Notes under the pieces: model-generated
The model's database searches: none
Seen by the model: the letters and a program-made list of their open reading frames with translations, nothing else
Told to the model about the DNA's origin: nothing
Part shown: positions 13,872 to 16,913 of the stretch, piece after piece
How the letters are laid out: each line of letters begins with the position of its first letter
Position numbering within the stretch: position 1 is the stretch's first letter
Source: a virus
Taxonomy: Duplodnaviria > Heunggongvirae > Uroviricota > Caudoviricetes
Length of the DNA: 64,000 nt
Direction: 5' to 3' (one strand)
IMG/VR virus record: IMGVR_UViG_3300009788_001732
Span: 9,963 to 73,962 of that record
Position numbers and translations under genes: made by a program

Positions 13872-16800
13872 TTAGTCATTTAGTCCGGATAACACGCCCA
13901 GCGTCAGTAGTTCAAGTTTCCGATTTTGTCGAAGCACTTTATGAACGTTCTCGTCGCTTGGGAGATGATAAATATCGACGATTTTACAACCTTTGTTCTC
14001 GTCCATTCCCTTACGATGAATTCTGTCTTCAGCCTGTGATCTCGACTCTGGATTGAAGTCATTACTCCAAAACACTGCCATGCGTGCTTCAGTCAGATTA
14101 AGACTCAATCCGCCTGATTGTGGATGAGCCACAAACGCCACCTGTTGATGATGCTCTAAATCTGCCCAATAGTGTAGAGGTTTGTCAGTCCTAATTGATT
14201 TTCCAGTATTATCAAATACTTGCCAACCACGGCCGTCGCACTGAACCACGGCCCAACCTTCCTTTTTACAGATTTGTCGAATACGATCATTGCTTCCTTG
14301 GAAGCCAGAGAAAATTACAATCCTGCCTGTTTCTTCACACTGTGCCAACCGTGCCTTTAGTTTGGCCTCCTTCGGGCACGGGGCTTCACGTGCGATCCGC
14401 TTGTACTTGGTGGTTTGACGAGTCCCTTTACATCTCGGACACGCTATGTATTTCTCTTCCAGAATATCAACGTACTCTTGGTCAAGCATGTCAATGGCTT
14501 GAATTGGGTCACTGGGCGCAGCAGGATCAAACCATGCTTTAACTTCTCCCGGCCGCTCTGAACCTGCGCAGGTTGGACAATTTCTAAGGCCATCATGTAT
14601 ATCTTTGTATATGAATCCGTCACTAAGCTCACGGAGCCATGTGATGCCTGTCATTACATTCGGAGCGCCCTTAGCAATTGTTTTTGCAACCCTAAGCATC
14701 GAAGGTGAGGGTTCACATATGTCAATCTCGTATACTTTGTCAGGCAAATCAAGAACATCCCGCTTGTGGATAACTGTAACTAAACCCGCGAGACGTTCGT
14801 ACATGTAGGACACTTCATCACTAGACCTTTCAAAGTCATGCACGGCTTTGTCAGGGTCGTCGATGTCCCACGCATGTGCGCCTTCATCTTTCAACTTAGC
14901 ACATTTCATGCACTTGTCCGGATTGTCTTTCCAGCCAATGCGTACATTGATAACGTTGTCGGGAAGTTCTTGCCGAACCATAAAACCTAAACGGGTTTCT
15001 AATTGATCCTTTGAACCCTCTTTCAGATAGCCCGGCCATGCAATTTCACACTGTTTCCACCAATCCAAGGGAGATTTTGGACTTGGGGTACCGGACATCA
15101 GAATCACGTAGCCATTATCAGTACCATACGTAATCCGAATCAAGTCTGCCAAATCTTGCGCGGCTTTGGATCGCTTTGCAGTCGGAGACTTCAGCTTTGA
15201 CGATTCATCAAAGATCACACCGGCTGGTACAGGATCAGAATCCAATCGCATCTCCATGAATTTGACCAGGCGTTCATACGTGGTTAAATAAATATTGTGT
15301 TCATTTGCATGGACAGTCTCGACGAGCGTATTCCCATCTTTGGGCTTGATCCATGAGAGCGGAAGTTTCCACTTTTCCCACTCTCGTTCAATATTTTCAA
15401 GCGATTTCAGCGGGCCAACCCAGAACCATTGGTCACAACCAGAACGTTCCATGACGGCTTGTGCTGCCATAGTATTATGCGTGACAATAAACTCATCTGT
15501 CACATAACAATGAGAATCAGAATTTACTCTTATACAAATACATTCCTCAAAGCCAATAGATTCAACTGATACAATGGCTCGGGTCGGTTGATACTTTGTT
15601 GGTGTCGTGTAAAGATTAGCTTTTCGAGACAAGAGGAAGGGTTTTGTACGGCTCCAAAATGATCCATTTATTCTATGGCTTGGTTGACCTATTCTTGACT
15701 CACCTTTATAAGTATAAATTGGTTTCTCTTTAAGACCCCGCGAACATGTACCACCAAATGATTGGATGAGAAACACCATTGCTGAGGCGAGTTTGTCTGA
15801 TGCTGAAGAAAATTCAATCCCACAAGTATTTAATGGCGTACCATCTGAATCTAATAACCCCTGCATCAAACATAAACGATTATCAACTGTATTGAAGAGA
15901 AATTCATTAGGGACAAATTTAGTAGCGGCTCTACATTCTTTTAGACCGTATGAATCAATAGCAGCACGAGTCCGAGGGCATCGAATTATATAAGCAATGT
16001 TTTCACCTTTCTTTGTTTGAGATGTAGGAACCAGGGGTGTGTCCATAAAGAAATTCAAACGGTCTATTGTCTCCTGATCAGGTACAGCCACACTATATGC
16101 GGGCAAATGCCCATTGCCCAGAATATACCCCATAACATATGGATGACATTCTAAGGCTTGCTTATCAAAATCAACCGGTTCCACCATTGGTATGAACCAT
16201 TTATTGTTGCCATTCCTATGCTGAAGACCCTTTGCTACAAGCTCTTGTAACTTGAAGACTTTATAACCTTGTCCCCGCCATTTACGCAGTGGTGTAATTA
16301 CTCGCCAAAGATGTTCTCCATCACATTCTGTAGATGACCTATCCGTAAAAGTAACTTTGAATATTTCTCTGCGCCCCTGTGGATGCAAACTCAAAACTTT
16401 GCACTCACCACCTTCTGGATCAACAAGACGTGATCCAACTTTCAAAGCACCCATAGTTGTCCAACCAGAGGGCGTAAGAACCGGCGTGGTTAATTGTGCG
16501 GCTTTCCCAACGCCCATTTCGGCACCCCAGATTTGATAATGATAAGTCAAACCTGTGTCAGCCATTAACTTTTGATGGTCCATCAGTGGCAAATGATCAG
16601 AATATTCACGTTGAATCAATTCCCGATCGAACCATTCGTAGGGGTCGGCGCCCATCAGATATTTCAACTGAAACCAGTTGCGCTGGCAGTTATCAACCGT
16701 CCAGACCTTTCGTGGCTGCTCACGATCGTAGCCATGCCACTTGGCGCCCGTCATCGCTTTGATTTCATTTTTGAGATGAAAGGGTGATTTCTTGAATTCA

Positions 16801-16913
16801 ATCTCTGTCGGGCTTACAACTAACGTGACCGGGTTTCTAATCCGCAGTCCGCCCTTTGTCTCTGTGTAGAGAACAGTTTCAAGAATCTTCTTTTGGGTCA
16901 TACCCATAATCAA
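13872..16913 (-). CDS. SNF2-family helicase (precursor containing an intein)
   Basis: Walker A GAEMGVGK|...|TMAAQA is split by a 343-aa insertion. Downstream are DESS (motif II), zinc-ribbon-like CxxC pairs and the helicase C-domain motifs QSGGLSLNLT and SQAEDRIHRKG. Confidence 0.85.
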   Translation of the reverse strand: MIMGMTQKKILETVLYTETKGGLRIRNPVTLVVSPTEIEFKKSPFHLKNEIKAMTGAKWHGYDREQPRKVWTVDNCQRNWFQLKYLMGADPYEWFDRELIQREYSDHLPLMDHQKLMADTGLTYHYQIWGAEMGVGKAAQLTTPVLTPSGWTTMGALKVGSRLVDPEGGECKVLSLHPQGRREIFKVTFTDRSSTECDGEHLWRVITPLRKWRGQGYKVFKLQELVAKGLQHRNGNNKWFIPMVEPVDFDKQALECHPYVMGYILGNGHLPAYSVAVPDQETIDRLNFFMDTPLVPTSQTKKGENIAYIIRCPRTRAAIDSYGLKECRAATKFVPNEFLFNTVDNRLCLMQGLLDSDGTPLNTCGIEFSSASDKLASAMVFLIQSFGGTCSRGLKEKPIYTYKGESRIGQPSHRINGSFWSRTKPFLLSRKANLYTTPTKYQPTRAIVSVESIGFEECICIRVNSDSHCYVTDEFIVTHNTMAAQAVMERSGCDQWFWVGPLKSLENIEREWEKWKLPLSWIKPKDGNTLVETVHANEHNIYLTTYERLVKFMEMRLDSDPVPAGVIFDESSKLKSPTAKRSKAAQDLADLIRITYGTDNGYVILMSGTPSPKSPLDWWKQCEIAWPGYLKEGSKDQLETRLGFMVRQELPDNVINVRIGWKDNPDKCMKCAKLKDEGAHAWDIDDPDKAVHDFERSSDEVSYMYERLAGLVTVIHKRDVLDLPDKVYEIDICEPSPSMLRVAKTIAKGAPNVMTGITWLRELSDGFIYKDIHDGLRNCPTCAGSERPGEVKAWFDPAAPSDPIQAIDMLDQEYVDILEEKYIACPRCKGTRQTTKYKRIAREAPCPKEAKLKARLAQCEETGRIVIFSGFQGSNDRIRQICKKEGWAVVQCDGRGWQVFDNTGKSIRTDKPLHYWADLEHHQQVAFVAHPQSGGLSLNLTEARMAVFWSNDFNPESRSQAEDRIHRKGMDENKGCKIVDIYHLPSDENVHKVLRQNRKLELLTLGVLSGLND
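15474..16502 (-). mobile_element. intein with LAGLIDADG homing endonuclease domain inserted in the helicase P-loop
   Basis: The intein begins AAQLTTPVLTPSG (block A-like, Ala1) right after GVGK. It carries the LAGLIDADG-like motifs VMGYILGNGH and LMQGLLDSDGT and ends IVTHN, followed by Thr+1; removing it restores GxGKT. I verified the nucleotide codons at both junctions. Confidence 0.8.

Follow-up and report, generated by a model that had tools for sequence, protein, structure and literature searches.

A probable class 3 intein with a nested LAGLIDADG domain splits the Walker A motif of a phage SNF2-like helicase

Results

We analysed a 64,000-nucleotide (nt) stretch of DNA from a tailed phage (Caudoviricetes; positions 9,963 to 73,962 of IMG/VR record IMGVR_UViG_3300009788_001732), hereafter the window, in which a helicase gene of the SNF2-like type is interrupted at its Walker A motif (P-loop) by an intein. 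The intein corresponds to residues 138-480 of the precursor, reading AAQLTTPV...FIVTHN (termini AAQLTTPVLTPSGWTTMG...ECICIRVNSDSHCYVTDEFIVTHN), and is flanked by ...WGAEMGVGK on its N-terminal side and by TMAAQAVMERSG... (TMAAQA) on its C-terminal side. The element is very probably a class 3 intein with a LAGLIDADG homing-endonuclease domain. The coordinates of all features are collected in Table 1; intein residues are numbered from Ala1 to Asn343, the flanking extein residues are Lys-1 and Thr+1, and a slash marks a splice junction or the corresponding empty site.

The insertion comprises exactly 1029 nt and is located in frame between the Walker A Lys and Thr codons (EMGVGK/TMAAQ). Deletion of its 343 codons results in EMGVGKTMAAQAV, which is identical at the junction to P0011, the nearest intein-free orthologue (668 amino acids (aa), 93% identical to the spliced helicase). 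The P0011 gene lies in a syntenic contig, L001, where the genes follow each other in the order SET-domain protein, helicase, exonuclease, two small open reading frames (ORFs), ParB-like protein, PolA. The empty allele in L001 reads GGGAAA/ACTATGGCA, in its longer context ...GGAGTCGGGAAA/ACTATGGCAGCA..., and the sequence on either side of the junction is ACTTATCATTATCAAATCTGGGGTGCTGAGATGGGAGTCGGGAAA/ACTATGGCAGCACAAGCTGTCATGGAACG; within 150 nt of the junction on each side, every block of 50 nt has 44-48 positions identical between the window and this contig. With any other boundary the empty allele is not regenerated, and as GGGAAA/ACT is matched by one junction alone the boundary is unique, Lys/Ala. 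Most close orthologues of the helicase lack the insertion: 111 of the 120 closest are intein-free with a length of 640-745 aa, an intact xMGxGKT motif is found in 96 of the 120 best, and only five of the 120 contain this intein, inserted at the identical position and with Ala, Leu, Leu, Glu or Gly as residue 1.

The restoration of GxGKT upon excision and the syntenic empty allele thus bear out the first-pass annotation of this DNA in its claim that the element is an insertion and not an unusual native sequence. The empty allele fixes the Lys/Ala junction, so that no other boundary puts a Cys or Ser at position 1, the finding that the same annotation had set beforehand as decisive against its reading. 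Its first residue, Ala encoded by GCC, was confirmed by checking the codon directly, and Thr at +1 holds as well; the codon given for the latter, ACG, is that of Thr341, the +1 codon being ACT.

Class 3 inteins were defined by Tori et al. 2010 by a non-nucleophilic residue 1, the triplet Trp(B:12)-Cys(F:4)-Thr(G:5) (WCT; splicing block and position within it) and Thr or Ser at +1 (PMC2807308). All of these residues are found in the window intein, namely Ala1, Trp66, Cys323, Thr341-His342-Asn343 and Thr+1, and block B has the DxxH variant (Asp61...His64) that was described for DnaBi1 together with a role of the +1 P-loop residue (PMC6195587). To see how these positions behave in the family we built a hidden Markov model (HMM) from the first homologues and aligned the 178 near-full-length relatives obtained from the searches. 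The WCT triplet is present in 177 of the 178, as is each of its members (Trp B:12, Cys F:4 in the Cys323 column, Thr G:5), whereas His B:10 and the terminal Asn occur in all 178 and the penultimate His in 176. The +1 residue is Thr in 154, Ser in 21 and Cys in 3 relatives (Thr or Ser in 175/178), and residue 1 varies widely (Ala 116, Pro 15, Gly 12, Ser 7, Cys 6, Leu 5, Glu 5, Gln 4, Phe 4, Asp 2, Tyr 1, Met 1), being non-nucleophilic in 165/178. Lys precedes the intein in 147 relatives, with an insertion at GxGK/ in 132.

The alignment also allowed us to revisit the residues on which the first-pass annotation had based a likeness to class 3. The Trp two residues past the block-B His in GEHLW is correct (His64-Leu65-Trp66, with the conservation given above), as is the T-H-N terminus (Thr341-His342-Asn343, codons checked). 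The two LAGLIDADG motifs that it noted are located at residues 122-131 and 212-221 and match LAGLIDADG structures. The block-F Cys, however, had been placed in SHCYV (Cys332), a candidate that we rejected as this column is Leu in 162/178 relatives, while Cys323 of ECICIRV is Cys in 177/178; the mutagenesis suggested there would therefore have struck the wrong residue. Neither Cys321 nor Cys332 is conserved among the relatives, and Cys323 aligns with the block-F Cys of 6bs8 (VRCVEV) and 6riz (ICIEV). The class 3 likeness itself stands, as every residue in the definition is present, the WCT triplet is near-invariant, and class 3 DnaB inteins are the nearest in sequence among solved structures.

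Table 1. Features of the split helicase gene, its intein and neighbouring genes in the window.
Feature	Positions	Strand	Details
Precursor gene, phage SNF2-like (HepA-type) helicase split by the intein	13872..16913	-	1013 codons; ORF list
N-extein	16503..16913	-	terminates in Walker A ...EMGVGK; Lys-1 codon AAA at 16503-16505
Intein, probable class 3, Ala1 to Asn343	15474..16502	-	343 codons; homology, empty allele, AlphaFold model
C-extein	13872..15473	-	starts with P-loop Thr+1 (ACT, 15471-15473), TMAAQAV...; stop codon included
Splicing block A (AAQLTTPVLTPSG)	16464..16502	-	Ala1 GCC 16500-16502; alignment with the N-terminal part of the Msm and Mch DnaB1 class 3 inteins starts at residue 3
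Splicing block B, DxxH motif	16299..16340	-	residue conservation in relatives; codons checked
Block B codons	Asp61 16320-16322; His64 (B:10) CAT 16311-16313; Trp66 (B:12) TGG 16305-16307; Cys60 (B:6) 16323-16325	-
Splicing block F (ECICIRVNSDSHCYVT)	15498..15545	-	predicted nucleophile Cys323 = F:4, TGT 15534-15536
Cys321 codon (F:2)	15540-15542	-
Splicing block G (EFIVTHN/T)	15471..15494	-	Thr341 (G:5) ACG 15480-15482; His342 CAT; Asn343 AAT 15474-15476; Thr+1 ACT
Nested LAGLIDADG homing-endonuclease domain	15606..16187	-	approximately residues 106-299, ends approximate; AlphaFold, Foldseek
LAGLIDADG motif 1, YVMGYILGNG, residues 122-131	16110..16139	-	catalytic position Asn130, AAT 16113-16115
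LAGLIDADG motif 2, LMQGLLDSDG, residues 212-221	15840..15869	-	catalytic Asp220, GAT 15843-15845
Val135 codon, site of a second intein type in orthologues	16509-16511	-
Cys622 codon, site of a third intein type in orthologues	15048-15050	-
SET-domain protein, 127 aa	16879-17262	-	Pfam PF00856, E 3e-13
ORF, 247 aa	18809-19552	-	paralogue of the following ORF
ORF, 249 aa	19624-20373	-	paralogue of the preceding ORF

Searches with the intein gave E-values from 5.9e-170 to 3.8e-70 against related inteins, far below anything attributable to chance, and among solved structures the nearest by sequence was 6bs8 (Mycobacterium smegmatis DnaB-1, class 3; E 3e-8), along with 6rix and 6riy. The alignment with these class 3 DnaB chains begins at residue 3 of both the query and the chain, so that residue 1 of the chain extrapolates onto Ala1. 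An AlphaFold model calculated from a 23-sequence alignment had a mean predicted local distance difference test value of 94.2 and a predicted template modelling (TM) score of 0.91. In Foldseek searches the full model matched PI-SceI (TM 0.77, E 3.5e-18) as well as other intein endonucleases; the HINT half overlaid class 3 DnaB inteins with a root-mean-square deviation of 1.3 Å and 38% identity over 69 columns, and also matched the Hedgehog autoprocessing domain, while the middle domain matched I-DmoI. The predicted architecture is thus a splicing domain of the HINT type, made up of residues 1-105 and 300-343, around a nested two-motif LAGLIDADG endonuclease.

The endonuclease domain belongs to the LAGLIDADG fold family: the model has the two-motif pseudo-dimer fold (alpha-beta-beta-alpha-beta-beta-alpha), and its structural matches in Foldseek comprise PI-SceI, PI-PfuI, I-DmoI and I-Tsp061I. 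An acidic residue ends motif 2 only (Asp220), motif 1 having Asn130 at this position. Asn occupies the motif-1 catalytic position in 41/178 relatives (23%), which form a coherent subfamily, GY[IL][IL][GA]NG, with co-varying Tyr126, Pro141, Thr145 and Arg148, found mainly in SNF2 P-loops; such a domain might cut both strands, act on them asymmetrically or as a nickase, or do no more than bind DNA. Two further cysteines lie close to the splicing residues, Cys60, which is kept in 137/178 relatives (77%), and Cys321, whose position is Cys in 62/178. By analogy to the redox trap of Msm DnaBi1, either of them could pair with the nucleophile Cys323 in a disulfide.

In four further proteins of the helicase family this site is occupied by the same intein, which starts with LGRLTT (P0013, P0018), EARYST (P0021) or GGLPST (P0080), and all of them have an invariant HLW...CI..V...THN/T. 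Residue 1 thus varies between Ala, Leu, Glu and Gly while W, C, T, H and N do not, the pattern to be expected of a non-catalytic residue 1. In comparisons of alleles the nonsynonymous divergence (dN) amounted to 0.17-0.20 for the HINT part, 0.21-0.26 for the endonuclease and 0.12-0.19 for the exteins of the same pairs; as the synonymous divergence (dS) was saturated in nearly all pairs, selection is expressed as the bound that dN is far below dS and not as a numerical dN/dS. The low dN against a saturated dS indicates that the HINT and the endonuclease part are both under purifying selection. The GC content of the intein, 40.8% against a window mean of 46.3% (standard deviation 1.9), is in the lowest 0.25% of 1029-nt windows, which is consistent with a mobile or horizontal origin. 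The presence of the intein in only five of the 120 close orthologues, the closest one being empty, agrees with gain and loss in the course of homing cycles.

One metagenomic sample, ERZ23486238, yields both L001, whose intein-free helicase is 93% identical to the window exteins, and L008, in which the helicase allele of a less closely related phage (Gly1, exteins 55% identical) contains the intein, so that the material for homing is present side by side. Orthologues of the helicase also host two class 1 inteins unrelated to the window intein (P0108, P0114, P0049, P0088). One has an HNH endonuclease and is inserted two residues upstream of the site described here (EMG/C...N/CGKT), the other is of the LAGLIDADG type and splits WWSQ/C...HN/CEIAWPG. 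This helicase family thus hosts three different inteins, each at a site of its own, and two of these sites are separated by only two residues of the P-loop, which illustrates the known preference of inteins for ATPase active sites.

Pfam gave weak matches of the precursor to SNF2-rel_dom (17.9 bits, cut-off 24.9) and Helicase_C (20.1 bits, cut-off 23.5). With the spliced helicase as query, a protein search yielded over 1500 homologues, many of them with PF00176 or PF00271. Some orthologues bear the JGI name "SNF2 family DNA or RNA helicase", and one carries the name Planctomycetota. Megablast of the host gene against GenBank phages gave no match, and tblastn of the spliced helicase detected only Pseudomonas M6-like helicases with 23% identity. 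The actual start codon may lie a few codons within the ORF. Together with the genes for an exonuclease, a ParB-like protein and PolA it makes up a replication module. The genome is that of a tailed phage, and its window portion includes genes for a tape measure protein, major head protein, portal and gpA-type large terminase along with a family A DNA polymerase, a primase, the exonuclease and the ParB-like protein. Neither a six-frame scan of the window with the family HMM, filters off, nor Pfam on its other large ORFs revealed a second intein of the same family or an intein domain, respectively.

Directly upstream of the helicase gene, and overlapping its start, lies a gene for a SET-domain protein. 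The pairing is kept in the related contigs L001, L002 and L005-L007, and a SET-domain (methyltransferase-fold) gene adjoining a phage SNF2-like helicase is unusual. Also on the minus strand are two neighbouring ORFs that are clear paralogues, with near-identical N-termini (MGMI.DLKNL...KRVLKRYIE.LE) and C-termini (...NPNELVLKMLATEIGIET...RNEHL.LMRKQGFA) and diverged middles; this pair is a tandem duplication.

Discussion

The boundary set by the empty allele, the class 3 residues and their near-invariance in the family, and the match to class 3 DnaB inteins lead us to regard the insertion, with high confidence, as a class 3 intein with a LAGLIDADG domain. Modelled on the class 3 pathway of the MP-Be DnaB, Dra Snf2 and Msm/Mle DnaB inteins, splicing would start with an attack of Cys323 on the Lys-1/Ala1 peptide bond, giving a thioester-branched intermediate on Cys323, which would be activated by His64 with Thr341 and packed by Trp66. 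A Cys-His-Thr triad has been described in class 3 inteins (PMC7664689), and dependence on Cys F:4, with a block-F followed by a block-G branched intermediate, is established for other members of the class (PMC2807308, PMC5222942). Transesterification would then transfer the N-extein to the hydroxyl of Thr+1, the P-loop Thr, cyclisation of Asn343, aided by His342, would release the intein, and an O-to-N acyl shift would restore GVGKT and, with it, an active ATPase. As the +1 nucleophile is the P-loop Thr itself, comparable to the P-loop Ser in DnaBi1, the unspliced precursor should lack ATPase activity. The endonuclease domain would recognise the empty allele DNA (GGAGTCGGGAAA/ACTATGGCAGCA) and initiate homing, which would account for the patchy occurrence of the intein among near-identical helicase genes; this occurrence and the purifying selection on the endonuclease domain lend cleavage of the intein-less site indirect support.

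Several points weigh against this interpretation. Splicing, the branched intermediate on Cys323 and endonuclease activity are all inferred. A class 1 intein given the WCT triplet alone did not splice (PMC7664689), so the signature is necessary, but not sufficient. Pfam-A has no family for the 343-aa intein at E<=1, and NCBIfam gave only sub-threshold matches to intein-containing GyrA, Tes and RNR models. Finally, in the PhoVMA intein loss of the catalytic Asp goes with endonuclease inactivity (PMC8966425), which, taken with Asn130, renders the homing activity of the window intein uncertain, although its endonuclease domain is intact and under selection.

The Asn130-type endonucleases might form a distinct, for instance nicking, LAGLIDADG lineage, and/or a disulfide among Cys60, Cys321 and Cys323 might make maturation of the helicase redox-conditional. 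The Asn subfamily is coherent and under purifying selection and Cys60 is frequent among the relatives, but we put this idea forward tentatively and consider it unlikely.

A decaying or splicing-dead intein, which would leave the helicase gene effectively a pseudogene or its precursor with another role, as for Arth_1007 of Arthrobacter FB24, is improbable. Asn130 could mark the onset of such decay, splicing is what we infer from the residues, and Arth_1007 provides the precedent of a class-3-like pseudo-intein (PMC3196547). The ORF of 1013 codons, however, is intact and H64, W66, C323, T341, H342, N343 and T+1 are all kept; the exteins are both complete, with 93% identity to the intein-free orthologue, and dN is far below dS in intein and exteins alike. 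Arth_1007 differs from this in having WDT and just 66 extein residues. Splicing could also follow a class 2 (KlbA-like) route, where no thioester forms at block F and the N-terminal junction is the direct target of the +1 residue; in its favour, the window intein has Ala1 in common with KlbA inteins (PMC2807308). Class 2 is defined by the absence of WCT and by Cys+1, whereas WCT is present here and near-invariant in the family and the +1 residue is Thr, a poor nucleophile for an amide; moreover, the F:4 Cys was obligatory in tested class 3 inteins even with Cys+1 (PMC5222942), and we judge this route highly improbable. A class 1 intein with its true boundary elsewhere and Cys, Ser or Thr at position 1 has almost no probability, as the slipped boundary that the AAQ echo after both junctions (K/AAQ..., ...N/TMAAQ) could suggest is rejected by the empty allele, which sets the junction to the nucleotide, by orthologous alleles that start with LGR, EAR or GGL and have no echo, by the lack of any Cys or Ser up to seven residues upstream of the junction, and by the alignment register of the crystallised class 3 DnaB inteins, which starts at residue 3 and by extrapolation puts residue 1 on Ala1.

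As a class 3 intein, the element is far from rare. A word-indexed protein search returned only nine proteins, among which neither the window's own protein nor its nearest alleles appeared; an exhaustive HMMER search corrected the resulting impression of rarity, with 16,083 cluster representatives below a threshold of E<=1e-3 and, at the stricter E<=1e-30, still 3,809. A tblastn search located this intein type in 796 phage records of GenBank, including 299 for Mycobacterium, 155 for Salmonella, 64 for Vibrio and 49 for Stx2a-converting phages. Many database proteins (P0131-P0145 and others) contain two to four copies at differing sites such as GxGK/, YMRGR/ and GFLPG/P, and in P0186 two inteins directly abut (...YIVTHN/CTTEDTPV...). 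SNF2 P-loop hosts were already listed in the paper that defined the class (PMC2807308), Lys/Thr was called the "classic" P-loop insertion by Kelley et al. 2016, who reported HepA-related helicase inteins in cluster C1 phages (PMC5050341), and Novikova et al. 2016 counted 15 HepA/SNF2 inteins in bacteria (PMC4760082). The window intein is thus a typical representative of a class that is very large and had been described before, and the novelty ascribed to it in the first-pass annotation was overrated.

The main value of the analysis lies in annotation. Pfam and NCBIfam are blind to the intein and the database entry of the identical protein (P0010) has no precomputed domains, so the gene would be called a 1013-aa hypothetical protein, although it is really a 670-aa SNF2-like helicase plus a mobile intein; automated annotation would overlook both. 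The alleles with Ala, Leu, Glu or Gly as residue 1 and invariant W, C, T, H and N constitute a natural mutagenesis series in agreement with the class 3 mechanism. Current understanding is unchanged, with the Asn-variant endonuclease subfamily and the possible redox switch as potential exceptions.

Comparison with known inteins places the element among class 3 members of phage helicases. The best overall structural match, PI-SceI (the yeast VMA1 intein), shares the combination of HINT and two-motif LAGLIDADG endonuclease, but is class 1 (Cys1/Cys+1), about 14% identical, and has an extra DNA-recognition region and both catalytic Asp residues. The DnaB-1 mini-inteins of M. smegmatis and M. chimaera (6bs8, 6rix, 6riy) share the block A pattern TP.PTPSGWTTMG, DxxH...W, the block-F Cys and THN, and are also inserted in a P-loop with the Mg-binding hydroxyl residue at +1. 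They differ in the loss of the endonuclease, in their host (DnaB, helicase superfamily 4, versus SNF2, superfamily 2) and in Ser at +1, and their redox trap uses Cys48, for which the window intein has no established equivalent. The intein in the Snf2-family protein of Deinococcus radiodurans, reportedly the subject of Brace et al. in 2010, is said to be class 3 with a block-F branched intermediate detected, and reportedly starts with Ser1, unlike the non-nucleophilic Ala1 here. The host protein type is shared by gp233 of Pseudomonas phage PhiPA3, a "putative SNF2 domain helicase" with HLW and an intein at the same P-loop site (GTGK/AQPLTS...CQCIQV...VTHN/T; 32% identical over all 343 residues); this is a jumbo-phage helicase that is not orthologous, and its record annotates the helicase coding sequence only and no intein. 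Alice gp175 from a cluster C1 mycobacteriophage (GSGK/AEPVSEPVLTP...LTHN/S) is 34% identical over its full length. The prototype in DnaB of mycobacteriophage Bethlehem (MP-Be) and the "HEL, related to HepA" inteins of cluster C1 agree with the window intein in the non-nucleophilic residue 1, WCT, THN and Ser/Thr+1 (PMC2807308, PMC5050341), as well as in the Walker A GK/ site and the nested LAGLIDADG domain. From these mycobacteriophage helicase inteins it is set apart by its sequence (~34% identity), by a different host helicase family, from an uncultured tailed phage, and by Asn130 in motif 1.

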